From an uncultured Desulfosarcina sp. (GTDB lineage: Bacteria > Desulfobacterota > Desulfobacteria > Desulfobacterales > Desulfosarcinaceae), in NCBI GenBank assembly GCA_963674945.2, contig CAXXWQ010000004.1, positions 1,472,001 to 1,536,000 of the forward strand: a DNA stretch of 64,000 bases, in the 5' to 3' direction. Positions 20,582 through 41,422 of this stretch are shown piece by piece (the stretch's first letter is position 1; each line of letters opens with the position of its first letter). The position numbers were made by a program, and so were the translations under genes. Below the pieces are notes generated by a model. That model had not been told where the DNA came from and ran no database searches. It saw only the letters and a program-made list of their open reading frames with translations.

Positions 20582-20602
20582 TGTCGTAGGACCATATTCA
20601 GT

Positions 20603-21288: not shown

Positions 21289-21372
21289 CCAAACGATCCG
21301 AAAACATGACCACATCTTCTCTCTTACGAACACTCGTTTCTCACGTTTGGAGATAAACCGACATTGAACCGC

Positions 21373-22203
21373 ATGAAAGAACAGGTAGATGAGGCAGCGA
21401 AATTTCTTGGGTCCCGGTTCGCCGTTTCCCCGAAAACCGCCATAATCACCGGTACCGGCCTGAGCGCGTCCGTGGGTCCCCTGGACCATCCCGTCACCCT
21501 GGATTATGATCGAATTCCCCACTTTCCCGTTTCTACCGTTGTCAGCCACACCGGAAGGATCCTCGCCGGCGGTCTCGCCGGCCATCCGGTCATGGTCCTT
21601 CAGGGGCGGTTTCATCTGTACGAGGGCTATGATCCGAAAACCGTCACCTTTCCCATTCGGGTGATGCAGAAAATGGGCGTCGGGCACCTGATTCTCGTGA
21701 ACGCCGCCGGGGGGATGAACCCGGCCTTTCGGCAGGAAGACCTGATGGTCATCGACGACCACATCAACCTCACCGGCGAGAATCCGTTAATCGGTGCCAA
21801 CGAGGACGACTGGGGCCCCCGGTTTCCCGATATGACGGCGGCCTATGACCCGAATTTTCGCCGGCTGTGCCGAGAAGTCGCCGAAGCCCTGGCGATTCCC
21901 GTCACACATGGCGTCTATGCCGGTCTAAAGGGGCCCAGTTTGGAAACGCCGGCGGAGGTCCGCTTTCTCAAGACCATCGGCGCAGACGCCGTGGGGTTTT
22001 CCACGGTGATGGAGACCATTGCCGCCGTCCATGCCGGAATCAAGGTACTGGGCATCTCCACCATCACCAACACCATCGATCCGGATCGACCGAAACCGGC
22101 TTCGGTGGAAGAAATCCTGGCGGCGGCCAACGCGGCGGCGCCCAAGCTCAGCCGGCTGATCGGGCGGATCGTGGCCCGGATCCATGGGAAGGACGCCCAA
22201 TGA
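21373..22203 (+). CDS. punA: Purine nucleoside phosphorylase (trimeric type)
   Basis: QGRFHLYEGY, NAAGG, DHINLTGENPL, GPRFPDM, GPSLETPAE and GADAVGFST. Confidence 0.93.
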   Translation: MKEQVDEAAKFLGSRFAVSPKTAIITGTGLSASVGPLDHPVTLDYDRIPHFPVSTVVSHTGRILAGGLAGHPVMVLQGRFHLYEGYDPKTVTFPIRVMQKMGVGHLILVNAAGGMNPAFRQEDLMVIDDHINLTGENPLIGANEDDWGPRFPDMTAAYDPNFRRLCREVAEALAIPVTHGVYAGLKGPSLETPAEVRFLKTIGADAVGFSTVMETIAAVHAGIKVLGISTITNTIDPDRPKPASVEEILAAANAAAPKLSRLIGRIVARIHGKDAQ

Positions 22204-23513: not shown

Positions 23514-23687
23514 AAAGCTTTTCCATGTCATAGATCGCCAAACCAATTAAGAAAGAAAATCCATCTTCCATTATTTCGTCGATGGGGTAAAATGGGAAAA
23601 GCTTATTATAAAAGTATTGTTAATTGGGTACGAAACGCGGAAAAACAAATCCCGAAAATTGAGTATTAGCCAGCGAGTCCATAGAAG

Positions 23688-25397
23688 ATGGACAGAAAAT
23701 CGATCATCACCGCGGCACGGGGCGATACCCCGGCGGACCTTTTGCTGGTCAACGCCAACATCGTCAATGTATTTTCCGGGCGGGTGAACCAGGGAAGCAT
23801 CGCCATAAAGGATGGCCATATCCTGGGATTCGGCGAATACGAGGCTGATACGGTCCTGGATCTTGGAGGCCGGTTTGTGGCGCCCGGCTTCATCGACGCC
23901 CACGTGCACATCGAAAGTGCCATGACCATCGTGGCCGAATTCGCAAGGGCCGTGGCGCCCTTGGGGACCACCACCGTGGTGGCCGACCCCCATGAAATCG
24001 CCAATGTGATGGGAACGGCGGGCATCGAATACATGCTCCGATCCGCCGAAAACCAGCCCATGGAGTGCCTCTTCACCCTTCCCTCCTGCGTTCCGGCAAC
24101 CAGCATGGAGACCGCCGGCGCCCGGCTGGAAGCCGAGGATCTGGCCCCCTTTCTCTCCCATCCGCGCATCGTGGCCCTGGCGGAAATGATGAACTACCCC
24201 GGCGTTATCTTCACCGATCCGTCGGTGATGGCCAAGCTGGAAATGGCCCGTTCCCACAAAGTGCCCATGAACGGCCACGCACCGGGCGTTTCCGGTCGTA
24301 AGCTGGCCGCCTACGCCGCCGCCGGCATCGCCTCGGACCACGAATGCACCCGGGCCGACGAGGCTTTGGAAAAGCTCTCTTTGGGCATGCGCATCATGGT
24401 CCGAGAAGGCACCTGTGAACGAAACCTGGATGCCCTGTTTCCCATCATCGATGCCGGTACCTGGCCTCGAATGATGTGGTGCACCGACGACCGCCACCCC
24501 CACGATATTCTCACCCATGGTCACATGGACGCGGTGATCCGAAAGGCTGTGGCAAAGGGATTGGATCCCGTCACGGCCATCCGCATGGGAACCATCAATC
24601 CGGCCGACTATTTCGGTCTTGGGGATGTGGGAGCCGTCGCACCGGGCCGCAAGGCCAATCTGGTGGTCTTCGCCGATCTTTTTGACATTCGCGTCCAAAA
24701 GGTCTTTTTCATGGGGAAACTGGTGGCCGAAGATGGAATGATGCGGCCCGACATCCACCGCCCATCCCCGGTCTCGGTGCCGTCCGCCATGAATCTGGAT
24801 CTCGAAAGACTGGATTTTTCCATTCCCGCGGCAGGCCAGCGGATGCGGGTGATCCGGGCCATCGCCGACCAGGTGGTCACCGGCTGCGACATCATGGATG
24901 TGAAAAAACACGACGGCGAAGTTGTGGCCGATATCGACCGTGACCTGGCAAAGCTGGCCGTGGTGGACCGTTATTCGGGGATGGCTGGTACCGGGAAGGG
25001 ATTCGTGACCGGTTTGGGATTGAAACGCGGCGCCATCGCCTCCACCGTGGCCCACGACTCCCACAACGTCATCGTGGCCGGTATCACGGATGACGACATG
25101 AAAGCCGCCGTGGCAGCCCTGGTCGGGATGGGAGGCGGTCTGGCGGCAGCCCTGAATGGCAATGCGATGCAACGGCTCCCCCTTCCCGTTGCCGGGCTCA
25201 TGTCCGACCAGCCGGTGGAGACGGTGAAAGAGCAGATGGACCGGATGATCGACGCCGCCAGATCCCTGGGAAGCCCCCTGTCCGATCCCTTCATGACCTT
25301 AAGCTTTCTGGCCCTTCCCGTCATCCCGGCGCTGAAACTCACCGACCGGGGCCTTGTTGACGTGAACCGGTTCGAAATCGTGGATCTGTTCGTTTGA
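23688..25397 (+). CDS. ade: Adenine deaminase
   Basis: PGFIDAHVHIES, DPHEIANV, SDHEC, CTDDRHP, STVAHDSHN and LSFLALPVIP. Confidence 0.95.
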   Translation: MDRKSIITAARGDTPADLLLVNANIVNVFSGRVNQGSIAIKDGHILGFGEYEADTVLDLGGRFVAPGFIDAHVHIESAMTIVAEFARAVAPLGTTTVVADPHEIANVMGTAGIEYMLRSAENQPMECLFTLPSCVPATSMETAGARLEAEDLAPFLSHPRIVALAEMMNYPGVIFTDPSVMAKLEMARSHKVPMNGHAPGVSGRKLAAYAAAGIASDHECTRADEALEKLSLGMRIMVREGTCERNLDALFPIIDAGTWPRMMWCTDDRHPHDILTHGHMDAVIRKAVAKGLDPVTAIRMGTINPADYFGLGDVGAVAPGRKANLVVFADLFDIRVQKVFFMGKLVAEDGMMRPDIHRPSPVSVPSAMNLDLERLDFSIPAAGQRMRVIRAIADQVVTGCDIMDVKKHDGEVVADIDRDLAKLAVVDRYSGMAGTGKGFVTGLGLKRGAIASTVAHDSHNVIVAGITDDDMKAAVAALVGMGGGLAAALNGNAMQRLPLPVAGLMSDQPVETVKEQMDRMIDAARSLGSPLSDPFMTLSFLALPVIPALKLTDRGLVDVNRFEIVDLFV

Positions 25398-25518: not shown

Positions 25519-27189
25519 GTAGAGTAGGGAGGGATTACCCTCCCCCTCGTCAAACCGGACAGGCGGATTTCCCGCATCCGGCTTTCCCTTGAACTTCACC
25601 AACAAGCACACGCAGAGCATCAGCTAATGTCGCTACTACAGATATATCAGCCCCAGCTGTTTCAGGTGCCGGTAATAGCTTCTCCCTTTCGGAGGACGAA
25701 AAGGACGCTGACTGCGACGACGTAAATGACCGATAAAGCGATGCAGAACATACCAGTTCATTTCCCGAAACGCCTTGCGAGGATAGCCGAATTGAAAGTA
25801 GTTGGCCCATCCGCGCTGTTGGCGATTCACCGCCTCGATCAGCTGCGTCACAGGAACACAACTGTGTTTGCGGCTAATCGTTTCTCGAAGCCTGTCCCGA
25901 TGCGCCTGCATCGCCTTGCGCGATGGCGTTACGTTCAGATAGAAGACCTTCTCGAACCAATGAAGGTAAATATTCGCCAAAAGCGGCGATATCACACCGC
26001 CTTGAGGCGTACCCTTCCCTTTCCGCGAGACTTTCTTGCCGCCGTGGCCATCATCCTCCTCGATCGGTGCCGACAGCCACATCTGAATCAGCTTCAACAC
26101 CGAGCGGTCGACGATCCGCATGCGAACACACTTCATCAGCTTGTCCTGCGGAATCGCGTCAAAGTAACCTTTCAGGTCGGCATCAAGCACCGACGTCAAT
26201 CCCTGTTTTCGGTTCGATGATCAGCAGCGCGGCCGTCTGGATGACACGGTCCCGTATCGTCGGGATGCCCAAAGGGCGCTGACGTCCGTCGGGTTTGGGT
26301 ATATATACCCGCCGTACTGCCATGGGGCGGTACTGCTTGCGCCTGAGGTCTTCATGGATTTCTTCCACGAAACCCTCAGACCCGCCCTCACTGGCTTCAA
26401 TCTGTTCGAATGTAACGCCGTCCACACCGCCCTTGCCTCCGTTGGCTTTGGCGATCCGGTAGGCGCTGGTCAATACGTCTCGCCGATAAATCCGATCATA
26501 GAGTGCATAAAATCGGAACTTCGGCTCCTGCTTCGCTTTCAGGTAGAGCTTCTGTCTCAAAGAAGAGAGTTTCTCCGGAAGCCGGATCGTCTTTACGTGG
26601 GCGGACTTCCACACGTCCACGTCAATAGACTCCCACAGTTCCAGTTGTTCCGTAATGGGTCTGTTAACCAAGCGGCACTCCTCTTGTCTGACTCTGCATG
26701 TTCAAGGCAAGGCCCCTTGGCTCCACGGGCATTACCCCGCTTCTCGGCTACTATGGGCCTCTCCGACTCCCGACATGGCCGTTTGCCGGTTATTGATTCC
26801 CCACAAACGTTGGTGACACGATCGCCGCCGTGCCGGGTCTCCCAGGTTCCTCGATGCGACTGTCCAAGCGCGCCCTCCCCTATCACCCCGGGGTGCCCTG
26901 CGGCTTCTCTCGCTCGTTGCTTCACCGCAGGTGGCAGGCTTCGCCATCTTTGGCAGGTTGGCCACACCCAATTGCGTAACGAGGCCGAAGCGGGTTCATT
27001 TTCATTAGGGCTCACTTGTTCGCAGTCCGGGAAGGCTATTCCCTTCGCCACCCGCCATAGGGCGGTGACCGATCCGCTTCCCATGCTCGGTTACCCTGAC
27101 ATGGGGGACCGCTGCTACACGATGAACGAGCAATTATCATGGCTGACTCCTTTCAGTCGGCAAGTCACACCAGGCTTATCCTGGCGCTC
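25519..27189 (-). mobile_element. Group II intron (decayed)
   Basis: Minus-strand 5' end GAGCG (variant of GUGCG) at 27189. Domain V aagccggatgcgggaaatccgcctgtccggttt and domain VI ending ctctAC at 25519. RT fragments lie inside. Confidence 0.92.
25636..26671 (-). pseudogene. ltrA: Intron-encoded RT/maturase with two internal deletions and a frameshift
   Basis: RT0-2 ([24 protein letters not shown]), then a frameshift to RT3-4 (DADLKGYFD, GTPQGGVISPLLANIYL), then directly to domain X (GWANYF). YADD is absent. Confidence 0.9.
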
Positions 27190-27339: not shown

Positions 27340-30300
27340 TTATTCGCGCCCCGATGTTCCGGCCATGACGGACTTTCCCACCTCCCTGCCGATAACGGTG
27401 TCAAATGCCAACCGCACCGGATCGGGAAAGGGCGTGGCCACAGGCCGGTTCTGACCGTCCCGCGTCACCCAGACGGCCCGGTGAAAGCCGTAGGCGATCT
27501 TCACCGACGATCCGTCCGGTTCCAGGCGGAAGTAATCCACGTGAAAGGTGACGCTGCAACTTCTCAGCTCCTTGACGGCCAGGGTGAGCTTGATCCGATC
27601 GAAGGGCATGGCCTCGCGCAGGTGGTCCACGCGGCTCTCCAGGGCCAGCAGCTCTCCCTTCTCACCGATTCCGCCGAAGTAGTCGGGAATCAGATCGTAG
27701 AAGAATCGGTCCCGGATCTGCCCCTGCCAGTCGTAGTAATTGGCATAGTAGATATTGCCCACCAGGTTGGCGTGGGCCAGGGTGGTGTCGAAGACCTGTT
27801 CCCTCACGATGGCGCGAATCACCGGTCCCGGGGGGGCCAGATAGAGGATGGGATCATCGTCCGATTCAAGCAGGTGTGCCATGGATTCCTCCATGGGCGC
27901 GGGGATATCGGGCGCATCGAAACGCGGGCACATGTCCTCGATGAAATGCCCGTAGTAGGTTGGATAAGGGGCGACCCTGGCCTTTCCCGGACCCAGTATC
28001 TCCACCCAGGTGGTCTGAAGACGGCAAAAGGCGAGACGTTTGCGGCCACCATCCTTTCCCATTTTTCGAAAATCATAGGAAAGCGTCATGGTGGAATTCT
28101 CGGGCCCGCTGTTGTCACTCACCCACATGAGAATTTCCACCTGGTCGCTGGTGGCACCCTCCCCTACTATCTTCAGGTGGCCATAGTTGGTCACCCCGCC
28201 CCATCGGCCGCTGGCGAACTGATCCGACATCTGGGCCAGGACCGGCCAGGCAGAGGCTTCCCGGGTGTTACCCATCCATTTGATGAAGTTGGAAAAGTAG
28301 ATGGTCCGGCTCAAATTGGCGCTGGGCTGGAAGGTGACCGGCAGCCGCTGGACGAACACCAGCTGCCCCTGGGGTCCACCCTCGATCATCTCGAAGGGGC
28401 GGACCTCGTACAAGGGTTCGTATCCCGGATAGTCGGCGGTCAAAAGGTGCGCCGGCACCCGGGGCGCCGCCTTCTCGGCGGTCGTGGTAGTAACGGCCAG
28501 AATCTGCGGCCTGCCCCAGGTCAGACGAATGGCCAGGGTGAGAATCTGTAGGGCGGAACCTTCGGCGTCGGTGACTTCAAAAAGAACGGCCGTCCCTTTT
28601 TTTTTCACGATCCGAAGGGTATCTGAAGAGACGACACCGATCTTGCCCAAGGTTTCGGTGGCGGCCCAGACGCGGGTACCGGCGGTATCCAGATCTTCTA
28701 TGGATTCGGCGAGTTCATCCAGAAGCCGGGCCCGATCCGGTCCCAGCAGACCTATCCACGCGTCTTTCTCCCTCGAGGTAATAGCGGCCAGGTCACACCC
28801 CATTGGACCGGGACCGACCGAACAGAGACAGGTCCGGTCCTCATGGGTCAACGACAGGTCCAGCACGCCACCGGCGATATTGGCGACGGCCGGTTTACCC
28901 GTCTCTTCCCAGTGGACGGCCAATGAAGCGGATGGGACATCGTACTTGTCGGCGGCCTCCTGCAGCGCCTTTTCCAGCAGGGGCATCTCGAGATCCCGTC
29001 GCCGGTCCCTGGTCTGGTCGTGAATTCCCACGATGGTGGCCAGATCCACGAAAGGTGTTGTCACGGCAAGATCGTTTCCGGCCGCATCCAGCGCCTGCCG
29101 AACCATCTGCCGGTCCCGCTCCTCTGGTCGGATCAGATCGGCCACCGTCGGGTAGTGATCGTGGTGCTTGAGAATTCGAAGACGATAGCCGGAGAGTTCG
29201 GCCCGGATCGATCCGTCCTCACCAACTGCCGTCACTTTGTAAATCAGGTCCCGGTCATCCTGCTCCATCAGTTCAACGCGCACGTTTGCCGATTTACCGC
29301 CGTCGAAGAATTCGGGGAAAAGATCCATGCAATCGATGGATACGGGAAGGCTGGTATCCTGGGGTACCAAGAGGGCCGCGCTCTGCAGCATCGTATCGGT
29401 GAAGAAGGGATCACCCAGGCACAACCGGACCGAAGGGTGTTTCCCGAAGGCCTGGCCCACCAGTCGATCCTTTGGAGTCAGGCGGCTGGTGAGCAGTGCC
29501 GTTCCGGTCCGTTCACCGGATTGTTGGATTTGCCAGACCCTTTCGATGCCCTGGAACCGGGGACCTTGGAACAAGAGCGTGGGACGGTACAGATCCGTCT
29601 CGGGGACCAGCGGCAAGGGTTCATCGGGCAGTTCCATGACGGCTGCCGGCGCCGTTTCCCCTGCCTCGAAGGCAAAGGAGGCGGAGAAAAAGTCGGAAGC
29701 AACACCGGTATCCTGCTTGACGATACCGGCGTGAATCGTGGTCCGCCCATCGCCATCTGCCTCGGATATGATGGCATGGATGGTGATGTCGGCTCCCGAT
29801 TCGGCATCCACGGTGATGGGCCGGAGAAGACGAATATCCCGGATCTGCATCCGCACCGGCTTCTTTTGTTCGGTAAGGTAAAACACCGCTTCGGCCATGG
29901 CCTCCAGGCCGAATACCGTCGGGAAGAGATATGACCCTTGAAAATGGTGATCCTTGAGATAAAGATCGCTTTCGAGGGATAGATGGGCGGAAAAAACCGC
30001 CTCCACCCCCGGCGTCAGATGAATAAGCCGTTCCAGAAACCGCCAAGCCCGGGGCGGGTCGGGAATTGTCTGGCGCCACGTGTCCAGTCCCCCCAGACGG
30101 GCGGTCACCACCACCTGGCGATGGCCCGGGTCGTGGGTGAAGAGTCTAAGAAATCGGTCCACACCCATATCGGTGGGAATGGCGTCGATGCCCCTGTCCC
30201 GAAGCAGGGCCACGCTTCCCATGCGTGCCCCCATCCCTTCGTCCCGCCAGATGCTGTAGGCGACATTGAGGATCTGGGTTTGGGGATGGACGGCATGAAA

Positions 30301-33300
30301 CCCTCGCAGGAGGATGTCCATTACCTCGTTGGAAAAGCCGTACCAACCGTTTCCGGGCATGCCGGTGAGGCCGATGATGGATCCGAGCCCCACGATGAGC
30401 TTTGGCGGGTTCCCGTGAAGCGGATCGAGCAGGTGAAGCAATCCCAGCACCTTGGGGGCGGTTTCTGCAAATGCCTGTTCGGGAACGACCTGTCCGGTCA
30501 ATCGTGGCCGGTTGAGGCCGGCACCGTGGATAATCCCGGTCACCGTTCCAAACTTTTCGGTGACCTGGCGCAGCATATTTTCGACCTGGCTTCGATTTGT
30601 CACATCACAGGAAAAGTAGGCTGCCGTCAGGCCGAGATCCACATACTGGTCTAAAACATCGCGGATCTCTCGACTGGCCGGTTCGTCCGGCGCCTCTTCG
30701 GGAAAAGAGGTCCTCCCCACCAATGCCATGGTCACACCGGTATGGCGCGCCACGGCCAGGGCGCAGGCGGCCGTGATCCCCTTGGCGCCGCCGGTAACGA
30801 GGATGACGTCCTTTCCTGTCCAACGAATATCGCGCACTTTTGCATCCGCAGGCTGTACGAGATGGGGAATGGGGATTCGGCGGGTCTGGTCCAGATCGTA
30901 TCCCACGGCGGCGTAACTCTCCTGGGTGAAGATTTCGGCCAGGGTCTCCCAGGCGATGATCTCTGGCGACAGGGCGGAACTGAAATCCACGACACGAACC
31001 CGAAGGTCCCCCCGTTCCAGATGAAGACTCGCTCCCAGCGCCATGGTTGCGCATCGATCCGCTGTCGCGAATCGTGGGTTCCGCCCGAAAAAACCGCCAC
31101 CGAATTGAATCCAGGCGATGGTGGTGGTCCTTCTGGGAGCTTCGGCCGCCGGCGGCACGCGGGTCAACAGCGACCGCATACGGATCATCCGGTCCAACAT
31201 TGCCGACGGATCCGCGCCTCCGAGGTCGTTTTTGGGCAAGATGGTCACCAAATGAGAAAAGGCCGGATCCTGAACCAAGGCGTCAACATCTTCATGATCC
31301 ATGGCGCACCGCTTGGTAAAAGCGCCGCGATGGAATAAATTAACGTCCAGGGCTTCGGCCACATCCGCCGCGTCTTCGCTGAAGAGAATCAGGAACCGCG
31401 CCTTTTGCAGATCATTCTCCGAGCGCATCCGCCAGTTTTCGGGAAACAGTGGATAGGGTGTCTCCACCATTTCCATGGCGAAGTTGCGCACCCAGGTGGT
31501 ATGGTCATCGGGAACGACCGGCGGTCGCGTCTCTTCGACGCCGGCGACGGCTTCCTGCTGCTGGGCCGCCATCCGGTTCAAGATGGTGCCGATCTCCCGC
31601 AAACTGCATGTGCGCAAAGGCTCGATGTCCAGGTGAGCGGACAGTCCCAAGGCCGTGGCGGTGCTCACCACCAGGTCCTGGAGCTTGTCCGGCCCCAGGT
31701 GAAGATCTTTTTCCACCAAAAGGTCCGGATCTAGGGTGTCCATGGGAAAACCGGTGATTCGGGCGGCCTGGACGCGCAACTCGGTCATCGCATCCAAAGG
31801 GGGGGCCACCTGGATTTCGGGTTCCATGGCCATGGCAATTTGATCCACGACCTGGGCCAGGCTTGCGTTGGCAAGCCCCGGGACCTCCAACCGATCGGAC
31901 ACACCGGTCTTGTTGGCCAACCACACGATCAGGTCTCCGGCCTTGATGGAATCCAGGTTCAGATCATCCAGGAGGCGAAAGGACAATTCGATGCTTTCGG
32001 CCGGAAAGCCGGTAACTTCGGCCACCTGTTGTACCAGGAGCCGCTCCAGTTTCGCCCGGTCCACCGTCGACCGGCCCTTTTTTGTTTCAGCACTGCCCCG
32101 CAGCCGCTGGGCGGCGTCGGCCAGCTCGCCCAAGGCGGCATTGGCCAACAACGTCGGATCGGGAAAAGAGATCCCGCACTGTTTTGCGAAACGGGTGATG
32201 AGGTCACCGGCCTTGATGGAGTCCAGATTCAGATCATCCAGCAGCCGGACGTTCCGAGAGAGGCTGTCTGCCGGAAAACCGGTCACCGCCGAAACCAGAT
32301 CCAGCAGGATGGCCTGGGCCGCCACCGGCTCGACCGCCGGTGTCGACGCCGCGCCGTCCACATCCTTCGGTCGTGCATCGGGATCCCAGAAAGAGAGATC
32401 GGCCTTTACCACCTGCCGTAAAAACGCACCCCGGGAAGCAAGGTACCGGCTGACCAGTGCGTCCGGAACACCGGTGAAGGCTTCGGCCAGTACAGGATGA
32501 ATCCCGCCCGGGATGATACCGGCTTCATCTTCCTTCTCCTTTTCGATGACGGGGATGTTTTCACATGGATTGACGACAAAAATCTTTTCACCGGCCGGCG
32601 TAAAGGGCCGGATCAGCCTGTTTTCGAAGAAGGTCTCCCACCGGATGGACGTACCATGGGAAAACAAGGCACCCACCGCCCGGTTCAGATCCGAAAAACT
32701 TCCGGCCGCGGTTTCCACCGGAAGGCATGGCGTTTTCCCATCGCCGCGGATATCCCGAACGAGACCCGTGAGAACACGCCCCGGGCCCACTTCGACGATC
32801 ACATCACAAGCAGCGTGCATACTTCGCACCATGGCAATAAAATCGACCCGGGACCGGATCTGCCGGGAGAAATGATCTTTCAAGGAAAGGCCTGCCTCGA
32901 GCCGGGAACCGTCGATACTGGTAAACAGCGTACAGACCGGCGCCGCCATGGATTCTGTCAGCATCTGAAAATCGGCCACCTGCCGTGCGGACTCTTCACA
33001 AAGGGGGCTGTGGAAGGCGGCGGAAACCGGAAGCGTTACGGCGCTGACGCCATTTTCCCGTGCCAGCCGCGCCATTTGTGCAACGGCCGACGATTCGCCG
33101 GAGAGTACGGTCTGATGGGGGCTGTTGCGGTTTGCCACGGTGACGGTCGAACCCGATTGGGCGACCAAGGCCAGTGCCGTGGATTCGTCGCATCGCAGAC
33201 TCACCATGCCACCCGGCGTCGTCACCGGTGCGGACATGACCTTCCCGCGGCGGGTGGAAAACTCCAGCAGCGTCGCTCCGTCCATAACGCCTGCAGCAAA

Positions 33301-35418
33301 ACAGGCGGTCAATTCTCCCAGGCTGTGGCCGCCCACGGCAACCGGTACGACCCCCAGACGGGTCAGATATTCGAACCACAGCATGGAGGTCAAACAAATG
33401 GCCGGCTGTGCATGTTCCGTAAGGGAAAGGGTACGGAACCAATGTTCCTGCTGTTCGGCATCCGATGCCCGGTCCATGTCACGATGGATCAAGGCGCCGA
33501 TGGAAACACCGATTTGTTCGCCGGTCACCCGATCGGCCGTTTTCATCCAGGAACGCGCCCACTCGAATCGCCGGACCAGGGCAAACGCCATGTTGATCCG
33601 CTGTGAGCCCTGACCGGGAAACAAAAATCCGATCCGGGGGGCCGTATTCCCCGATCCCAACCAGATGTCCGGACCCGGCGAAATCACCCTCTGGCCTTCC
33701 GCTTCCATTACGGATTTTTGCACTGCAGTTTTCAATTGGGCCAGACGGTCCGCCAGGTCATCGGGATGGCCGGCAACGACGGCCGCCCTGAGGTTCGACG
33801 AAGGATCTGCCTGTGGACATTGCCGGGCCGAAAGGTCGGCGAGTTCGGCGATACTCGAACCCTCTGCGTCTCGGATCAGTTTATCGATTTTTTCGATCAT
33901 GTTCGCCACATCGTCTGCACCGATGGCGAAAAGCTCATCCTCCTGGGCATGGGCCAGCAGTATCTCTTCTTCCAGGGCCGGTTGCAGTCGATTGTCCGGA
34001 GCGTCGCCGGAGACCAGGGTGATGTGACAATTGATCCCGCCGAACCCCATGGAAGAGACGCCTGCTTTCAATTGGGTATCGGTGGATTCGAGCCTTCCGA
34101 GGCGGACCGGATAGATCCTTCGGGCGGCGTTGTCGAATGCCTGGTGGGGATGGTTGCAGGCCGCGGTGGGGGGAACCACCCGTCGATTGACCGCCATGAC
34201 CGCCTTCATCAATCCACCGATTCCCGAAGCGGCCTTGGCATGGCCGATGATGGACTTCAGGGAGGTGATGCCGCAAGGCCGCAACAGGCCCTTGGGGACG
34301 GGGGTTCGTCCGGTCACCTGGGCGATGGCCTCCAGTTCCGTCCGGTCCCCAACGGTGGTCCCGGTGCCGTGCCCCTCGATAAAATCCAGCTCGTGGATCC
34401 CGTACGGAGCATGATGATATGCCCGTTCCAGGGCCAGGGCCTGACCGGCACTGCGGGGCGCCGTGATGCCGGTACCGGCGCCGTCCGACGAGATACCCCA
34501 CCCATGAATCACCGCATAGACGCGGTTTCCTTCTTTTCTTGCCGCATCCAGGGGCTTGAGCACCATGAATCCGCATCCCTCACCGGGTATGAAGCCCTTA
34601 CCCCCCCGGTCGTACACGTTCATATCCCCGTCGGTGAGTGCCCCGGTCTTGGCAAATCCCACCATTTCAAAGGGGTCGAGGCTGATGTCAACGCCTCCCA
34701 CCAGGGCCAGGTCCAGGTCGCCGTCGGCAAGACGCGAGGCGGCATGGGCCACCGCCAGAAGGGAGGAGGAACAGGCGCCGTCAACCGTGAATCCCCCCCC
34801 CATTAAATTGAGATGGTTGCATATTCGTCCTGCGATGGTATTGGACAAACCACCGGCCAACGTGTCTTCGTCAACCTTGGGAAAGACCGCGGTGTAGCGC
34901 TCCTTAAGCAATCGCGTGAGACCTCGAAGCTGGGTTTCATCCATGCCCTGGGCACGGGCGGCGCTGAAAAGCGCCCGCCGGACAAAAGGCCAGCGCAGCC
35001 GCATGGTGTTGGACCGGGTCTGCTCCCCCGTAAGGGTGTTGCCGACGATGACGCCGGTCCGCTGTCCGGGCAGGGTGTCCCGGGTATATCCGGCATCGGA
35101 AACGGCCGCAAGACTGGTCTCCAATGCCAACCAATGAACGACATCCGTGGTTTTCATGGTTGACTCGGGAATGCGACGCCCGGACCAGTCGAAGACAAAA
35201 CCGTCGATGACCGCGGCTTGACGCCCATAGGTCTTATCTGCGGTCTTTCGATCCGGATCGTAATAATCCGCCATGGAAAGCCGGCATTGGGGGAATTGTC
35301 GAAACTGCCGTCTTTTCGCCAGAACATTTTCCCACAGCAGGCGGGGCGTGGATGCATCCGGATATTGACATGCCAATCCGATCACAGCGATCGCCGCAGA
35401 CGAAGGCCGATGGTTCAT
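27340..35418 (-). CDS. Enediyne-type (PksE-like) iterative type I PKS: KS-AT-ACP-ACP-ACP*-KR-DH-PPTase-TE-TE
   Basis: KS: DGACSSS, EGHGTGT, IGHAKAA, with PksE-like GNTLTGE..MRLRWPFVRR and EDTLAGGLSNTIAGRICNH. AT: GQGSQ, GHSLG, AFHS. ACP: LDSIK x2. KR: TGGAKGI, YGFSNE. DH: DHHFQGSYLFP. PPTase: GKP, SLTH, GCD, WAATETLGK. Two hot-dog TE domains. Confidence 0.9.
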   Translation of the reverse strand: MNHRPSSAAIAVIGLACQYPDASTPRLLWENVLAKRRQFRQFPQCRLSMADYYDPDRKTADKTYGRQAAVIDGFVFDWSGRRIPESTMKTTDVVHWLALETSLAAVSDAGYTRDTLPGQRTGVIVGNTLTGEQTRSNTMRLRWPFVRRALFSAARAQGMDETQLRGLTRLLKERYTAVFPKVDEDTLAGGLSNTIAGRICNHLNLMGGGFTVDGACSSSLLAVAHAASRLADGDLDLALVGGVDISLDPFEMVGFAKTGALTDGDMNVYDRGGKGFIPGEGCGFMVLKPLDAARKEGNRVYAVIHGWGISSDGAGTGITAPRSAGQALALERAYHHAPYGIHELDFIEGHGTGTTVGDRTELEAIAQVTGRTPVPKGLLRPCGITSLKSIIGHAKAASGIGGLMKAVMAVNRRVVPPTAACNHPHQAFDNAARRIYPVRLGRLESTDTQLKAGVSSMGFGGINCHITLVSGDAPDNRLQPALEEEILLAHAQEDELFAIGADDVANMIEKIDKLIRDAEGSSIAELADLSARQCPQADPSSNLRAAVVAGHPDDLADRLAQLKTAVQKSVMEAEGQRVISPGPDIWLGSGNTAPRIGFLFPGQGSQRINMAFALVRRFEWARSWMKTADRVTGEQIGVSIGALIHRDMDRASDAEQQEHWFRTLSLTEHAQPAICLTSMLWFEYLTRLGVVPVAVGGHSLGELTACFAAGVMDGATLLEFSTRRGKVMSAPVTTPGGMVSLRCDESTALALVAQSGSTVTVANRNSPHQTVLSGESSAVAQMARLARENGVSAVTLPVSAAFHSPLCEESARQVADFQMLTESMAAPVCTLFTSIDGSRLEAGLSLKDHFSRQIRSRVDFIAMVRSMHAACDVIVEVGPGRVLTGLVRDIRGDGKTPCLPVETAAGSFSDLNRAVGALFSHGTSIRWETFFENRLIRPFTPAGEKIFVVNPCENIPVIEKEKEDEAGIIPGGIHPVLAEAFTGVPDALVSRYLASRGAFLRQVVKADLSFWDPDARPKDVDGAASTPAVEPVAAQAILLDLVSAVTGFPADSLSRNVRLLDDLNLDSIKAGDLITRFAKQCGISFPDPTLLANAALGELADAAQRLRGSAETKKGRSTVDRAKLERLLVQQVAEVTGFPAESIELSFRLLDDLNLDSIKAGDLIVWLANKTGVSDRLEVPGLANASLAQVVDQIAMAMEPEIQVAPPLDAMTELRVQAARITGFPMDTLDPDLLVEKDLHLGPDKLQDLVVSTATALGLSAHLDIEPLRTCSLREIGTILNRMAAQQQEAVAGVEETRPPVVPDDHTTWVRNFAMEMVETPYPLFPENWRMRSENDLQKARFLILFSEDAADVAEALDVNLFHRGAFTKRCAMDHEDVDALVQDPAFSHLVTILPKNDLGGADPSAMLDRMIRMRSLLTRVPPAAEAPRRTTTIAWIQFGGGFFGRNPRFATADRCATMALGASLHLERGDLRVRVVDFSSALSPEIIAWETLAEIFTQESYAAVGYDLDQTRRIPIPHLVQPADAKVRDIRWTGKDVILVTGGAKGITAACALAVARHTGVTMALVGRTSFPEEAPDEPASREIRDVLDQYVDLGLTAAYFSCDVTNRSQVENMLRQVTEKFGTVTGIIHGAGLNRPRLTGQVVPEQAFAETAPKVLGLLHLLDPLHGNPPKLIVGLGSIIGLTGMPGNGWYGFSNEVMDILLRGFHAVHPQTQILNVAYSIWRDEGMGARMGSVALLRDRGIDAIPTDMGVDRFLRLFTHDPGHRQVVVTARLGGLDTWRQTIPDPPRAWRFLERLIHLTPGVEAVFSAHLSLESDLYLKDHHFQGSYLFPTVFGLEAMAEAVFYLTEQKKPVRMQIRDIRLLRPITVDAESGADITIHAIISEADGDGRTTIHAGIVKQDTGVASDFFSASFAFEAGETAPAAVMELPDEPLPLVPETDLYRPTLLFQGPRFQGIERVWQIQQSGERTGTALLTSRLTPKDRLVGQAFGKHPSVRLCLGDPFFTDTMLQSAALLVPQDTSLPVSIDCMDLFPEFFDGGKSANVRVELMEQDDRDLIYKVTAVGEDGSIRAELSGYRLRILKHHDHYPTVADLIRPEERDRQMVRQALDAAGNDLAVTTPFVDLATIVGIHDQTRDRRRDLEMPLLEKALQEAADKYDVPSASLAVHWEETGKPAVANIAGGVLDLSLTHEDRTCLCSVGPGPMGCDLAAITSREKDAWIGLLGPDRARLLDELAESIEDLDTAGTRVWAATETLGKIGVVSSDTLRIVKKKGTAVLFEVTDAEGSALQILTLAIRLTWGRPQILAVTTTTAEKAAPRVPAHLLTADYPGYEPLYEVRPFEMIEGGPQGQLVFVQRLPVTFQPSANLSRTIYFSNFIKWMGNTREASAWPVLAQMSDQFASGRWGGVTNYGHLKIVGEGATSDQVEILMWVSDNSGPENSTMTLSYDFRKMGKDGGRKRLAFCRLQTTWVEILGPGKARVAPYPTYYGHFIEDMCPRFDAPDIPAPMEESMAHLLESDDDPILYLAPPGPVIRAIVREQVFDTTLAHANLVGNIYYANYYDWQGQIRDRFFYDLIPDYFGGIGEKGELLALESRVDHLREAMPFDRIKLTLAVKELRSCSVTFHVDYFRLEPDGSSVKIAYGFHRAVWVTRDGQNRPVATPFPDPVRLAFDTVIGREVGKSVMAGTSGRE

Positions 35419-35645
35419 GTACCTCTTCCTTTTTACGATTTATTTTGTTTGCCAATTTATGTACACAAACACGAGGGCTGTGGTGAAATGGGAGATCCGG
35501 GCAGGTGTTGTTCGTGCACGTTGGGAAAAATAGGTTGCGTCGACCCAATTCCCGCGAATTCATTGTAAGGCATTTTTTCTTTGGATTTGCAGTTATACCT
35601 GTAACATATTCGCAAGAAAAAATACAGATGCAAGGTAAAACAAAT

Positions 35646-37247
35646 ATGACAACAAAGCTGAGAACCTGTGTTTCTCCGGCGGGTCGTTTTATCTTCGGGA
35701 TCCACCGGCCGACATTCACCTCGGATAATTTCCGCTTTGAAAGTTCACTTACCGACCTGGGTCTAATGCCCGATGGCACCCCATACCGCAACCGGGCCAA
35801 TTTTCCCGAAGGCCCGGTACAAGAACCATCGGCGGACTGGATATTCGAAGTTCCCAACGCCTTTCCCTTCCGGGGCACGACCTACATCGGGAAAACCTGG
35901 GCCGATTCTCGTGCCAAAAGTCCCGAACATATCCGGTTGCCCGAGGCGCCGGAGATTTCTTTCTTTTCGGGTTTCGAAGATGAAGCCTCGGCCATGGGAG
36001 CGATCCAAAAGCTCCCCCGCCCCCTTCACCTGGCCCTGGCCGTCACCTCAACCGATCCGCGGGACCTGTGCTGTCTGGCCCATATGGCCTGCACATTTTT
36101 CATGGATGAGACCAGCGGCGCCCCATGGGGATTGGCCTATGAACGCCGAAACGACGGAAGGATGAAGGCCGTTATCACGGACGAAGCGCTGTTCGAGGCC
36201 GTGGCCAACAACCGCCACCTGCCCGGACCCTACAAGCAGGCCATGGTTCTTCGTCCCGGCGCCCAGGGGGAAAGCGAAATCGTCGGCGAATGGCAGGGTG
36301 AGAACACCCATGTGTTCGAGTATCTCAGGCGCAACTCCTACATCCCCTGGGGCCACTATGCAGCCAACATGGCAAACGACGCCGTGCGGTACCGGGTCCG
36401 GGACATCACCCTTTCGGACATGACCGGCATGCGCCATCTTTACTATCAGCGAAGCTATACCCGCATGGCGCGGCAGTTGGGAATCCATCTTGAACCCGAT
36501 GCCGGCCCCATCGATGCCAATGCCCTGGAACGCATCCGGCAGCGCATCCAAAACACTCCTTCCGCCCATGGGGACCTGCCCTTTGACAGGACCTTGTGGG
36601 GATGGAATTACGGATTCGATTTCGCTCCCAGCGGGTACCGCCTCCACGCCTCCCACCAGCAGATCCACCAGCAGTATGCGATGATTCCAAAAACCGTCCC
36701 GATAAACGGCGATACGGGTCGAATACCGGCATTTGCATGCGGTGACATGGTGGCCGAATTCATCAGTGAATTCCGCAAGCAGACGGGAAAAGGCTTTTTC
36801 GATTGCTATGAAAAGGCGATTGTTGAAAACCAGCGGATGGACGGGAACGATGAACGGGAGAAAAGCCTGGTGATTTTTGAGGACGAACGGGTCATGGTAT
36901 TCGTACCCAAGGCGCAGACATCCCAATGGGAGTTACAATTGATGCCCAAGCTTTCCGTGGGCAATATATTCGATTCGGACACTGCCATGCGCCACAGTCT
37001 GGACCGGGCCATATTGGTTGCCGTTCGGACACTGGCACAGATGGGGGCGAGGATGATCACCACCATCGAGTACGCCAAACCCATATTCGACGGAGATGAT
37101 GAGCAGCGGCTATTGATGGCATTTTTGCCGAAACTGCCCGAATCCCCCGGTGCCTTCAGCGAAGCCCAATTGCGCTGGATCAACGGCCACTATCCGGAAG
37201 ATTTCGCCCTCGCCTGCCGACGCAAACAGACCGAAACCGAGAAATGA
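35646..37247 (+). CDS. Hypothetical protein with a GalT/HIT-like C-terminal region
   Basis: HASHQQIHQQ resembles the GalT HxHxQ site; VIFEDERVMVFVPKAQTSQWELQLMPK resembles the second half of GalT. The coding call is confident, the function tentative. Confidence 0.55.
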   Translation: MTTKLRTCVSPAGRFIFGIHRPTFTSDNFRFESSLTDLGLMPDGTPYRNRANFPEGPVQEPSADWIFEVPNAFPFRGTTYIGKTWADSRAKSPEHIRLPEAPEISFFSGFEDEASAMGAIQKLPRPLHLALAVTSTDPRDLCCLAHMACTFFMDETSGAPWGLAYERRNDGRMKAVITDEALFEAVANNRHLPGPYKQAMVLRPGAQGESEIVGEWQGENTHVFEYLRRNSYIPWGHYAANMANDAVRYRVRDITLSDMTGMRHLYYQRSYTRMARQLGIHLEPDAGPIDANALERIRQRIQNTPSAHGDLPFDRTLWGWNYGFDFAPSGYRLHASHQQIHQQYAMIPKTVPINGDTGRIPAFACGDMVAEFISEFRKQTGKGFFDCYEKAIVENQRMDGNDEREKSLVIFEDERVMVFVPKAQTSQWELQLMPKLSVGNIFDSDTAMRHSLDRAILVAVRTLAQMGARMITTIEYAKPIFDGDDEQRLLMAFLPKLPESPGAFSEAQLRWINGHYPEDFALACRRKQTETEK

Positions 37248-37788: not shown

Positions 37789-39258
37789 ATGAATCTGAGA
37801 CTTGGTATCACCGGGAAGCTGTTGGTGTGGTTCCTCTTCATACTCGGCATCTTTGTCGGTACGATTCTGATCCTGTATGTCAATATCAAGCAGGTGGTTC
37901 GTCTTTCCGAATCCATCGTGGGGAAAAATTACGCCATCTCATCCGGGACCAAGAAGATGGTGGAATCCCTTCTTGGCATGGAGGAGAACAAACAAAAGTT
38001 TCTTTTGCTTGGAAAACCCGACTACATCTCCTTCTACAACAAGGCGCAACGCGAATTCGAAGAAAACCTGGGCCAGTTGACCCGTCTGGTCGACGCGGGA
38101 CATGATATTTCTCCCGTGTGGTCTGAACTGATTGGCGACTACAAGACGCATCCCAGTGCGGATGCGCTGGCCAACCACCTGGCCGGGGGGCAAAATGACC
38201 CTGAATCGACTGCGTCCTTTTTCATCCCCGAAGCGACCATCAACGAATGGATAAAAAGAATTTCCGGCGAACGCCTGAAAAACGAACAGGAGATCGAGCG
38301 CACCATACGGGAGGTAAACCAGAAAGGCCGACTCTCGGCAAAGCTCGGACTGATCGGTCTTGGCGTTTCGGGAGTCGTCGGACTCATTGGTGTTTTCTAT
38401 TTGACCTATTCCATGCTCCCCCCGTTACGTGAATTGATGGAAGGCATCCGCATGATATCGTCCAACCGTCGAACGACACCCATCAAAATACGGAGCAGAG
38501 ATGAGTTCGGCGAACTGGCCCACGCATTCAATGAAATGTCGGAACGCCTGCGCAAAGAGGAACGGATGCGATCGGACTTCATCTCCATGCTCAGCCACGA
38601 AATCCGTACCCCGCTGACGTCCATTCGTGAATCGGTCAACATGATTCGCGAAGAGGTGATGGGCCCCATCAACGAGAGACAGGAAAAATTCCTTGCCATT
38701 GCGGGTTCGGAAATCAGCCGGATCACCGATCTGTTGAGCCATCTGATGCAGGCATCCCGGCTGGAACCGGGAGTGTTGAACATGCAGTTGGAGTCCATGG
38801 ACCCGTACACTTTCGTTTGCGATTGCACGGATAGCATCAAATTGGCTGCAAAGGCAAAAAACATCGAAATGACGGTAGATATCCCCACGTCAATCCCCCG
38901 CTTCATGGGGGACCGGATGAAACTCCAACAGGCCATGATGAATTATCTGTCCAATGCGATTAAATTCTCCGATTCCGGGGCACGGATCACCACCGGCGTA
39001 CGCCTTGAAAAATCCGGAGAGCAGCTCTCCTTTTACGTCAAGGACTATGGCCCCGGAATCATGGAGGAGGATCAGGCCTTCCTGTTCAACAAATATTATC
39101 GCGGCCAACGGGAACGGGAGCGGCTGGAGGGGGTGGGACTGGGACTGAGCATCGTAAAGAACATCATCGAATCCCACCATGGAAAGGTTTGGGTCGAAAG
39201 TCAGATGGGAAAGGGGTGCACCTTTGGGTTTACCCTTCCCCTTTCACTGGAATCATGA
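37789..39258 (+). CDS. HAMP-domain sensor histidine kinase
   Basis: Two TMs, HAMP (DEFGELAHAFNEM), SHEIRTPLTSI, NYLSNAIKF, DYGPGI and GLGLSIV. Confidence 0.95.
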   Translation: MNLRLGITGKLLVWFLFILGIFVGTILILYVNIKQVVRLSESIVGKNYAISSGTKKMVESLLGMEENKQKFLLLGKPDYISFYNKAQREFEENLGQLTRLVDAGHDISPVWSELIGDYKTHPSADALANHLAGGQNDPESTASFFIPEATINEWIKRISGERLKNEQEIERTIREVNQKGRLSAKLGLIGLGVSGVVGLIGVFYLTYSMLPPLRELMEGIRMISSNRRTTPIKIRSRDEFGELAHAFNEMSERLRKEERMRSDFISMLSHEIRTPLTSIRESVNMIREEVMGPINERQEKFLAIAGSEISRITDLLSHLMQASRLEPGVLNMQLESMDPYTFVCDCTDSIKLAAKAKNIEMTVDIPTSIPRFMGDRMKLQQAMMNYLSNAIKFSDSGARITTGVRLEKSGEQLSFYVKDYGPGIMEEDQAFLFNKYYRGQRERERLEGVGLGLSIVKNIIESHHGKVWVESQMGKGCTFGFTLPLSLES

Positions 39259-39369
39259 AACGCACCGTGGGTTCGCGGAAGTGACCGCCGTTGAATTTGC
39301 TTGAATTGTCGTGCAATGGCGATTAAAAGGAGCAATTGACCTTGAACGAAAAAAAAGAATGAACATCAT

Positions 39370-40059
39370 ATGACGCAAACTCGGATCTTGGCATACTTTC
39401 TGTGGATTTGGCTGGCGATTTTCACTGCGCACTTTTCCGGCTGCATGCACGTTTTTCATAAATCCGACGCCCCACTCCCCCCCGCAGCGTCATCGGAGGC
39501 GCAGATCGCTTTTGAAGAAGCGCTTGCCGATTACGGTAGCGGAGATTTCGAAGGCGCCTTGGCACGTTTTCGTGTATTGTCTTCCACCGGCGCCTCGGAT
39601 ACCATTGCACGAAAGGCAAAATTGGGAGAGATATACTGCCACATGATACTGGCAAAAACCCAGGCGGACTATCAGGTTGCCGTTGACATGTGGAGGGAAC
39701 TGGACCGTACGACGAAAAGTGAAGAAGCGTCCTGGGCAATCACCTTGACCGATCCCCTGGTGGATCGAATGGAACCCCGTGGAGCGGAAAACAAGATGGG
39801 AGCCGTCCCATCGCCGACAACCACATTACCGGAAGTCGGCAAACAGACCGACACGGAGCAAAGGTCAAAGGCCAAGATCGCCGAACTTACGAAAAAGGCG
39901 AACAAGGCGGATCAATTGCAGCGCCAACTCCATCAGATGATAGGGGAAAACAAATCCCTAAAGGAAAAAATCAAAGCGTTGGAGGCCATTGACCAGAATA
40001 TCCAACGGAAAAAATCCGAAATCGCAACTACCGATGAACAATCTAAAGATAAAGAATAA
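39370..40059 (+). CDS. Predicted lipoprotein with TPR-like segment and C-terminal coiled coil
   Basis: Lipobox FSGC and LKEKIKALEAIDQNIQRKK; lies between the kinase and the regulator. Confidence 0.7.
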   Translation: MTQTRILAYFLWIWLAIFTAHFSGCMHVFHKSDAPLPPAASSEAQIAFEEALADYGSGDFEGALARFRVLSSTGASDTIARKAKLGEIYCHMILAKTQADYQVAVDMWRELDRTTKSEEASWAITLTDPLVDRMEPRGAENKMGAVPSPTTTLPEVGKQTDTEQRSKAKIAELTKKANKADQLQRQLHQMIGENKSLKEKIKALEAIDQNIQRKKSEIATTDEQSKDKE

Positions 40060-41422
40060 CGACAGCTTGGCGCCTTCCGTCCTCGTCGTTGACGACGATC
40101 ACAATGTCCTGGAGGTGCTGGATGCCCGATTATCCAACTGCGGCCTTCGCGTATACCAGGCAGATGGCGGACACAAAGCCCTTACCATCCTCAATAACCA
40201 TGAAATCGACCTCGTCGTTTCCGATGTAAAAATGCCCGATCTCGATGGCATGGCACTCTTATCCGAAATCATTCAGAACCAGCCGGGACTTCCGGTTATC
40301 CTCCTAACCGCATATGCCAACGTTCCCGATGCCGTCAAGGCCGTTAAATCCGGAGCCGTGGATTACGTGGAAAAGCCTTTCGACGGAAAAGCGCTGAGCG
40401 AAAAAATCCAATTCATGCTCAAAGAGTTGCAGGATCCGGTCCCGAATCAGCAGATGGCGGAACCCTTCAAATTGGATGCCCAATTCGTCAGCCCTGCCAT
40501 GAAGAATCTGGAGAGGCTGGTTCAAAAAGTCGCCAAGAGCAGTGTAAATGTCTTGATTCTTGGAGAAAGCGGCGTGGGAAAGGAGCGAATCGCCAAACAG
40601 CTCCACCAGATCGGCCCTCGCCACAAAAAACCCTTCGTTGTGGTCGACTGTGGTGCGACACCGGCAGGTTTGCTGGAAAGCGAACTATTCGGCCACGTCA
40701 AGGGCTCTTTTACCCATGCCATCAGTGACAAGACCGGACTCATCGAAACGGCGGACACCGGAACGCTCTTCCTCGACGAAATCGGTAACATCTCCCATGA
40801 AATGCAGATCCGACTTCTCCGGTTCATCGAAGACCGAACCATCAGAAAGATCGGGGGACTGAAAGGGAAGACGGTGGACTGCCGGATCATCGCCGCCACC
40901 AATGCGGATTTGGCGGAGGAAATCAAGGAGGGTCGATTCAGGGAAGATCTCTTTTTCCGCCTTCGTGTCGTAACGTTGACGATACCCCCACTTCGGGAAC
41001 GAACTGCCGATATCCCCCTTCTGGTTGAACATTTTTCCCGTCAGTTCAGCGCGCAACACGGCGTCGATGAAGTTCATATCCCCAGAGAAACCATGGATTG
41101 GCTCTGTCAATACCCCTGGCCCGGGAATGTCCGGGAATTGAAAAATGCCATAGAGGGCGGTATCGTGCTATGCAGAAAAAATGTGCTCCGACCCGAGGAT
41201 TTTCACCTGATGGGGATGGTACAGAATGTGAGTACAACCGTCTCCGACGATCAGTGTCTCTCTTTGGAGGAGAGTGAAAAGAACACCATCCTGCGGGCCC
41301 TGGAGCAGACCGGTGGAATTCAAAAAGAGGCGGCCGAAGTACTGGGCATCAGCCGGCGGGCCATCCATTACAAGATAAAAAAATATGGTATTGATGCGGG
41401 CAGCATCAAGGCCAGGCACTGA
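40034..41422 (+). CDS. Sigma54-dependent response regulator (REC-AAA+-HTH)
   Basis: VVDDD, SDVKMP, GESGVGKE, ESELFGHVKGSFTHA, WPGNVREL and an HTH. Confidence 0.95.
   Translation: MNNLKIKNNDSLAPSVLVVDDDHNVLEVLDARLSNCGLRVYQADGGHKALTILNNHEIDLVVSDVKMPDLDGMALLSEIIQNQPGLPVILLTAYANVPDAVKAVKSGAVDYVEKPFDGKALSEKIQFMLKELQDPVPNQQMAEPFKLDAQFVSPAMKNLERLVQKVAKSSVNVLILGESGVGKERIAKQLHQIGPRHKKPFVVVDCGATPAGLLESELFGHVKGSFTHAISDKTGLIETADTGTLFLDEIGNISHEMQIRLLRFIEDRTIRKIGGLKGKTVDCRIIAATNADLAEEIKEGRFREDLFFRLRVVTLTIPPLRERTADIPLLVEHFSRQFSAQHGVDEVHIPRETMDWLCQYPWPGNVRELKNAIEGGIVLCRKNVLRPEDFHLMGMVQNVSTTVSDDQCLSLEESEKNTILRALEQTGGIQKEAAEVLGISRRAIHYKIKKYGIDAGSIKARH

Follow-up and report, generated by a model that had tools for sequence, protein, structure and literature searches.

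A single-chain fusion of an enediyne-class polyketide synthase with two hotdog thioesterase halves in Desulfosarcina: a probable synthase of linear polyenes

Introduction

What does an enediyne-type polyketide synthase (PKS) make when it stands alone in an anaerobic bacterium? The question is raised by a 64,000-nucleotide stretch from an uncultured Desulfosarcina sp. (assembly GCA_963674945.2, contig CAXXWQ010000004.1, positions 1,472,001 to 1,536,000 of the forward strand), which we call the window and whose numbering we use below. On its minus strand lies one large PKS gene, which an earlier note, made from the letters alone, took for a one-gene, self-priming, self-releasing polyene synthase. 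We argue here that its product is probably a free linear conjugated polyene and no enediyne, by analogy with a characterised enzyme pair.

27340..35418, (-): iterative type I PKS gene, 2692 residues, of the RerA+RerB type fused in one chain (open reading frame, Pfam, collinearity with SgcE, comparison with RerB)

Two things were known already: ketosynthases (KSs) of the enediyne class occur in anaerobic Deltaproteobacteria, and a split polyene synthase, RerA/RerB, exists. Singh et al. 2023 (PMC10308959) describe a sediment clade of enediyne-class KSs tied to Deltaproteobacteria, with four such KSs in anaerobes, and, working at the KS level, propose enediyne products for it; this is very probably the clade of the present PKS. 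In Rhodococcus erythropolis PR4, RerA (KS, acyltransferase (AT), two acyl carrier proteins (ACPs), ketoreductase (KR) and dehydratase (DH), in that order) and RerB (phosphopantetheinyl transferase (PPTase), a domain 'Y' and a thioesterase (TE)) make yellow polyenes with 6-9 double bonds, and also ACP-bound chains of up to C22 (PMC11563203). An artificial RerA-RerB fusion is active in E. coli, better than the split pair, and again gives 6-9 conjugated double bonds; KS or PPTase mutants are colourless, and a TE mutant (R415) stays orange with release blocked (PMC11563203). The PR4 cluster is listed as type Q in PMC3098273. In the open literature (subscription papers were outside our reach) we found no paper on a natural fusion, on the missing cassette in Desulfobacterales or on a receptor link, and a query for 'enediyne' with 'Desulfosarcina' returned no papers. 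New here are the identity of RerB 'domain Y' as a thioesterase half with an invariant Arg-Glu-Thr set, the doubt about self-priming, and the link to sensor kinases.

Results

A synthase with its thioesterase built in

The open reading frame is free of internal stops, and a purine-rich, ribosome-binding-like stretch lies directly 5' of its ATG. Most of the gene is spanned by contigs from two public runs, for which no within-gene differences are listed; these runs are probably the source sample and hence not independent of the assembly. Orthologs of the same length across many genomes argue against an assembly artefact, so the single 2692-residue PKS of the earlier note stands.

Pfam matches cover the KS, AT, ACP, KR and DH, with a weak 4HBT match, and no enoyl reductase domain was detected in the protein. 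SgcE, from the C-1027 plasmid, is collinear with the PKS over its full length (KS 53%, AT 33%, KR 33%, DH 31%, PPTase 34% identity), and the PKS extends about 370 residues past the SgcE end. The full order is KS-AT-ACP-ACP-(dead ACP)-KR-DH-PPTase followed by two fused hotdog thioesterase halves:

34009..35394, (-): KS, enediyne-class (Cys216, His350, His393); 53% identity to SgcE, catalytic triad in 143/143 family proteins, trees
32746..33633, (-): AT (Ser699, His803); Pfam, family residue mapping
32113..32307, (-): ACP 1 (Ser1067); PP-binding match
31834..32040, (-): ACP 2 (Ser1157); PP-binding match, residue mapping
31570..31797 (approximate), (-): ACP-like repeat 3, with Pro1243 replacing the attachment Ser; alignment
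30079..30807, (-): KR (Tyr1693); Pfam, residue mapping
29164..30030, (-): DH (His1824, Asp2008); Pfam, residue mapping
28483..29121, (-): PPTase-fold domain (Asp2209, Trp2251, Glu2255, Lys2259; Ala2211); 34% identity to the SgcE C-terminus, model against PptT
27922..28395, (-): hotdog thioesterase half 1, equivalent to RerB 'domain Y' (Arg2386, Glu2387, Thr2410); 26% identity to SgcE10, E 4e-7
27412..27849, (-): hotdog thioesterase half 2, E10 family (Asn2551, Asn2555, Tyr2557, Arg2569, the last equivalent to RerB R415); matches in the Protein Data Bank (PDB)

Both PksE-like KS segments quoted in the earlier note are present and align to SgcE. Its domain order, KS-AT-ACP-KR-DH-PPTase, agrees with the SgcE collinearity; its list fell short by omitting that there are three ACP-like repeats and two hotdog domains. 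The latter supply the built-in basis for the self-release that it proposed.

Residues were counted over 143 family proteins of at least 2150 residues, out of 244 collected; because these were found through C-terminal similarity, the set is biased to thioesterase-bearing forms. The KS Cys/His/His is kept throughout, and the KR Tyr and the DH His and Asp in 142. The AT carries a motif that we take to be of malonyl type. A Ser at the Pro1243 position of the third ACP-like repeat occurs in 0/24 close relatives, and from its alignment this repeat is probably not loadable. In hotdog half 1, Arg2386 is found in 142 proteins and Glu2387 and Thr2410 in 141 each; in half 2, Asn2551 and Tyr2557 are found in 140, Asn2555 in 141 and Arg2569 in 106. 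Across 22-23 close relatives, conservation peaks in half 1 (90%), stands at 81% in the KS, and is lowest in the PPTase (52%).

The top PDB matches of half 2 are SgcE10 (2e-15), CalE7 and DynE7 (E 2e-15 to 3e-12). A structural model of residues 2100-2692 (pLDDT 92.5, built on a 41-sequence alignment) resembles PPTases over its N-terminal 213 residues (PptT: Z 13.9, root-mean-square deviation (rmsd) 3.9, 191 residues) and double-hotdog acyl-ACP thioesterases over the remainder (Z 22.9, rmsd 3.0, 238 residues). Hotdog dimers have their active site between the halves. This geometry, together with the conservation in both halves, suggests one main site common to them: the two halves would fold as a single internal dimer whose site joins the Arg/Glu/Thr of half 1 with the Asn/Asn/Tyr of half 2. 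Matched by eye to the RerB sequence in the supplement of PMC11563203, half 1 corresponds to domain Y, half 2 to the TE, and Arg2569 to R415.

The PPTase is a different matter. Its fold is clear from the model, as the earlier note's self-priming would need, and the Asp, Trp, Glu and Lys listed above are retained; the strength of that proposal is reduced by position 2211, which is Ala here and Glu in SgcE and RerB (Ala in 62/143 family proteins, Glu in 43/143). Self-priming is doubtful because D-x-A replaces D-x-E, the domain is the least conserved of all, and the source genome (G000) has two stand-alone PPTases. ACP loading may run in cis or through a stand-alone enzyme.

PksE ancestry and the missing enediyne cassette

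The KS is 53% identical to SgcE and 35% identical to the PfaA of the same genome. In a 57-sequence KS tree the PKS family joins SgcE with a support of 0.97. A 34-sequence tree that includes three cyanobacterial PksE with adjacent cassette genes places the five cassette-linked enzymes, from actinomycetes and cyanobacteria, in a clade of their own (SH-aLRT 99.2) that excludes the PKS; its sister is the fused family (joint support 98.5). A single origin of all fused members has no support in either tree (0.20 for 57 sequences, 40 for 34 sequences), so their monophyly is weak. The KS phylogeny that the earlier note called for thus groups the protein with PksE and not with PfaA, outside the cassette-linked clade, in trees without CalE8, DynE8, HglE and 10-membered references. 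The top NCBIfam match of the PKS, TIGR02813 (PfaA), reaches 572 bits where the cut-off is 1010; the true PfaA of the genome reaches 1614. That PfaA gene (G000:C3:2472664-2479377) and a PfaBC-like gene (C4:122749-129903) lie on separate contigs.

E3, E4 and E5 are the minimal enediyne cassette according to PMC9992847. PF08012 was found in 0/29 genomes that carry the PKS, nor did the Gloeothece plasmid match it, with the C-1027 plasmid positive as a control; PF07593 was not found in G000 (controls positive 2/2); and blastp of SgcE2-E5 against a six-frame translation of G000 (E 0.01) gave no match (E5 was checked by blastp only). G000 is 98.7% complete in 4 contigs. The genome-wide search proposed in the earlier note therefore found no cassette, and its statement that no E3/E4/E5-like or tailoring gene flanks the PKS is borne out. 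A further 83 loci gave no E3/E4/E5 match either. In G000, blastp with SgcE10 matches two fused PKSs, this one and the paralog described below, and nothing else. The locus of one cyanobacterial relative (L066) carries a DUF1702 gene 7 kb downstream of the PKS.

The PKS shares with SgcE/SgcE10, CalE8/CalE7 and DynE8/DynE7 the domain order, the KS class, the built-in PPTase and the E10-type hotdog thioesterase. It differs from these enediyne synthases (PKSEs) in its tandem ACPs, in a thioesterase that is duplicated and fused, in that E3/E4/E5 were not found, and in its place as sister to the cassette-linked clade. With PfaA and other polyunsaturated fatty acid (PUFA) synthases it has in common tandem ACPs and the KS-AT-ACPn-KR order; unlike PfaA, it falls below the family cut-off, belongs to another KS clade, and has housekeeping neighbours rather than pfaBCD. 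Judged by its sequence, it is an enzyme that works like a PKSE plus E10, and like RerA/RerB, outside the enediyne cassette family.

A linear polyene as the likely product

The closest functional counterpart is RerA/RerB: an enediyne-like KS with a catalytic Cys216 in both, tandem ACPs, KR, DH, then PPTase-'Y'-TE. They differ in that the Rhodococcus system has two genes, whereas the PKS is one natural chain with a third, Ser-less ACP repeat and D-x-A in place of D48-x-E50; its host is anaerobic, and sensor genes accompany its relatives. None of ten stand-alone PPT-TE-TE proteins whose names were checked is called RerB.

By this analogy, the PKS would condense malonyl units repeatedly, reducing and dehydrating each, and release linear conjugated polyenes and polyenones in free form, with roughly 15-19 carbons. 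Such a free polyene, and no enediyne, is the probable product as far as chemistry goes, as the earlier note had also supposed. Carotenoid-cleavage oxygenases, which act on polyenes, lie beside the cyanobacterial relatives in Gloeothece and at L066, L069 and L072, and we count them for polyene chemistry.

Several observations pull the other way. Characterised enzymes share only about 53% identity with the KS, and the product may accordingly differ from theirs in chain length and in how it is released. The D-x-A of the PPTase has to be set against the RerB D48A/E50A double mutant, which is inactive (PMC11563203). Arg2569, needed in RerB, is kept less well than the residues of the proposed composite site, so that this site and the RerB mutant indicate different residues. 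PfaA and PfaBC are encoded in G000, so a trans-acting reductase could be at work.

Distribution and a second copy

A search with the C-terminal block returned 282 clusters (50% identity) at E up to 1e-30. Among the named members are proteins from Desulfosarcina, Desulfobacterium, the Olavius Delta 1 symbiont, Microcoleus, Albidiferax, Minicystis, Derxia and Ca. Methanoperedens, and the closest named relatives are from Desulfosarcina (KS identity 77-83%). The protein named from the archaeon Candidatus Methanoperedens (P0118, 2999 residues) has about 450 extra C-terminal residues; its archaeal source is as named only. In P0089 and P0092 a PilZ domain (PF07238) is a hint that c-di-GMP may control them.

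Orthologs are present in 26/31 genomes of the genus and in 0/34 other genomes of the taxonomic family, three of which hold a more distant copy. Across the order, PKS matches occur in 16/301 genomes, and a phylum sample of 401 gave G000 and one same-order genome only. G000 carries a second paralog (G000:C3:140871-150911 (-), about 2610 residues, KS identity 63%, with one ACP Ser motif recognised) whose gene immediately follows that of a six-helix hybrid kinase; three other genomes of the genus share this pair, with frameshifts in one.

In cyanobacteria the KS was matched in 11/301 genomes, three of these matches being cassette-type PksE. Most of nine other cyanobacterial relatives and Gloeothece have 1-3 halogenase-like genes nearby, and several a carotenoid-cleavage oxygenase or exporter; at L058 and L065-L072 the flavin halogenase-like genes are often joined by a carotenoid-cleavage oxygenase, aldehyde dehydrogenase or ABC exporter. 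This branch is a candidate halogenated-polyene pathway, on which a single literature search turned up no paper.

Sensor genes beside relatives of the PKS

At order-level loci with the 5' end visible, the next gene upstream is a hybrid kinase with six transmembrane helices in 9 of 16 cases, including the G000 paralog:

Next upstream gene of the PKS: linked hybrid kinase with six-helix domain, HisKA, HATPase and receiver

Four of the 16 have instead a divergent gene for a Ser/Thr kinase-AAA-GAF-PAS-HD-GYP protein, and three have neither sensor. Such Ser/Thr kinase proteins, of about 1850 residues, stand at L047, L048, L051, L053 and 8 metagenomic loci. Among held-out genus paralogs the six-helix kinase is upstream in 3/3. 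In a receptor tree all nine PKS-adjacent receptors fall in one clade (99), joined by six non-adjacent ones.

A model of the six-helix domain (pLDDT 81) resembles ImcA (Z 18.9, rmsd 2.1, 196 residues) and adenylyl cyclases 9 and 5 (Z 15.9 and 15.0); the next row scores 9.9, and Rv1625c 8.4. The domain's profile gave chance matches only against PDB sequences, and no Pfam family scored above its cut-off for it. The paralog's kinase bears a precomputed annotation as PF20968, presumably the family named MASE8.

Loci with the six-helix domain and no PKS were surveyed at 40 of the higher-scoring places among about 117 listed. An S-adenosylmethionine-dependent methyltransferase is found at 17 of these 40, all in the other receptor clade, and at none of the PKS loci. 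Many close relatives of one such methyltransferase carry the JGI name '3-hydroxypalmitic acid methyl ester biosynthesis protein' (PhcB); PhcB is a signal synthase of Ralstonia (PMC7694676 and PMC10653808). No PhcB-like methyltransferase was found at PKS loci or in G000. The gene lies near a six-helix hybrid kinase at L081, L083-L088, L090, L092, L093, L095-L097, L099, L101, L112 and L113, some with a cNMP-binding domain, and these loci are a candidate Phc-type quorum system in sulfate reducers. A PfaBC-like gene directly adjoins the six-helix gene in three cases, and a FabH-like gene precedes it in one. Aminotransferases near four loci were considered as CqsA-like synthases and rejected, the three tested being unrelated class I/II aminotransferases.

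Within the genus, an unlinked six-helix kinase of 785 residues (G000:C3:1803749-1806109) occurs in 26/26 PKS-positive genomes, in 2/5 PKS-negative ones, and in 0/34 other genomes of the taxonomic family. This co-occurrence is weak, because any genus-specific gene would give such a pattern.

Neighbouring genes in the window

The PKS gene is flanked by a core gene and by an adenine deaminase gene, with a group II intron between the PKS and the latter; with no biosynthetic gene among its window neighbours, it stands alone.

25519-27170, (-): group II intron whose reverse transcriptase is broken and internally shortened (open reading frames 26183-26671 and 25636-26199); 5' end estimated by eye
35505-37247, (+): core protein of about 540-580 residues, no known family, HxxHQ-type motif; upstream neighbour of the PKS

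The intron is inserted directly downstream of the PKS and fills the gap to the deaminase (about 25519-27170); in relatives it is missing at that site, and the spacing is about 30 bases. The 533-residue reading frame at 23571-25172 (-) is a shadow of the plus-strand deaminase. Atlas features describe the core protein as GalT/HIT-like at 0.77-0.80 (a lead only); we rejected it as a pathway partner, as it occurs in 60/65 genomes of the taxonomic family, PKS-free ones included, and is missing beside distant homologs.

Farther out, 37789-42510 (+) encodes a CHASE3 kinase, a probable lipoprotein, a sigma-54 regulator and an ECF sigma factor; the synteny of this block with the PKS is confined to the genus. 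An oxygen-defence group occupies 49794-61679 (thioredoxin, peroxiredoxin, rubrerythrin-like protein, cytochrome bd subunits I and II, flavodiiron-type protein). A probable electron-bifurcating module at 16205-21762 (-) combines genes for NuoE/NuoF-like flavoproteins, a DRTGG protein and an RnfB/GltD-like fusion. The 539-residue protein at 1997-3616 (+) has weak guanylate-cyclase and MerR matches and nothing else.

The neighbourhood survey agrees with the earlier note on the lack of cassette genes; that note had missed the near-core status in the genus, the paralog, the large family, the split homolog and the ties to sensors.

Discussion

What might the polyene be for? Since the sensor kinases beside relatives of the PKS belong to a family that elsewhere pairs with enzymes of quorum-signal type, the product may be a signal. 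As in PhcB-PhcS and CqsA-CqsS, a synthase gene adjoins that of a membrane kinase (PMC7694676, PMC10653808 and PMC4821796). Six-helix designs of the PhcS/CqsS type can sense lipophilic ligands, with PhcB-like partners at the sister-receptor loci described above; PMC4821796 and PMC12414865 add that the six-helix CqsS receptor can drive adenylyl cyclases, and propose lipids as ligands whose binding sites have yet to be mapped. Unlike the Phc and Cqs systems, the synthase would be an iterative PKS of 2600 residues and the signal a polyene, and the window's gene is without an adjacent receptor.

We put a signalling role forward tentatively, and consider it somewhat doubtful. The product would be membrane-soluble and sensed by a six-helix kinase, as the gene context suggests; in the genus the reader would probably be the unlinked 785-residue kinase. 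In its full form, which we hold more tentatively still, the proposal is that in Desulfobacterales an enediyne-type megasynthase makes the autoinducer, a polyene or polyenone that would serve as a cell-to-cell or oxygen-reporting lipid signal. The six-helix receptor family would swap partners between PhcB-like methyltransferase and PKS; synthase and unlinked receptor would be the core pair of the genus, and the paralog with its adjacent receptor a second, mobile channel. We give signalling priority as the more consequential reading, and because a specific receptor pattern stands behind it, even if the PKS of the window is itself without the link.

A good deal weighs against this role. No sensor adjoins the window's PKS in any of 14 close loci. 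Among held-out loci the six-helix kinase is upstream in 0/3 from other genomes of the taxonomic family, in 0/6 from distant relatives and in 6/18 from metagenomes, where the Ser/Thr kinase accounts for 8/18 and neither sensor for 4/18 (this metagenomic set contains several near-duplicates; two already-used loci and those with less than 1 kb upstream were dropped). The nine kinase-linked loci span six genera but one receptor clade, and may reflect a single old linkage. The six-helix domain occurs in 87/301 genomes of the order, the PKS in 16/301. RerAB polyenes, moreover, are unstable (PMC11563203).

The alternative that survives best keeps the same chemistry and makes the product a membrane pigment or a sacrificial antioxidant during oxygen exposure, with the sensors regulating the synthase. 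We hold it slightly likelier than signalling, if short of probable. The stand-alone PKS is near-core in the genus without a linked receptor; divergent sensor/PKS layouts fit regulation, and three unrelated sensor types stand beside the family. The oxygen-defence group lies 15-26 kb off, and PMC11563203 describes polyenes as antioxidants. However, that group's linkage to the PKS is seen in the window alone, and the receptor family of the commonest neighbour has a sister clade beside PhcB-like signal methyltransferases.

It is unlikely, though less easily dismissed than what follows, that the released chain is an intermediate which unlinked enzymes turn into another lipid by trans-reduction, cleavage or esterification. 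The tandem ACPs, as in PUFA synthases, and the PfaA and PfaBC of the genome would fit such a route, as would the cyanobacterial sister clusters, which add halogenase-like genes, a cleavage oxygenase, an aldehyde dehydrogenase and an exporter. At Desulfobacterales loci, however, no tailoring gene recurs, PF04820 and PF03055 were not found in G000 (controls positive), and a thioesterase within the same chain speaks for direct release.

A PfaA/Hgl-type fatty acid or glycolipid synthase, suggested by the multiple ACPs and the top NCBIfam match, is highly improbable given the score far below cut-off, the KS identities and the place in trees that contain no Hgl references. A true enediyne pathway with core genes outside the assembly or too divergent, as PMC10308959 suggested for the KS clade, is nearly refuted by the cassette searches and the separate cassette-linked clade, despite the enediyne-class KS, the JGI name 'enediyne polyketide synthase' for many homologs and the DUF1702 gene near one relative.

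To return to the polyene reading, its first consequence is that the published 'enediyne' KS lead from marine sediments and anaerobic Deltaproteobacteria is redirected: core-forming genes were not found, and the products are probably simple polyenes. The protein offers a natural single-chain PKSE-thioesterase for the study of polyene chain length and release, and RerB 'domain Y' gains a testable identity. If the receptor link is true, the polyene would be a candidate ligand for orphan six-helix sensors akin in fold to adenylyl-cyclase anchors, and sediment sulfate reducers would have a new signal chemistry.

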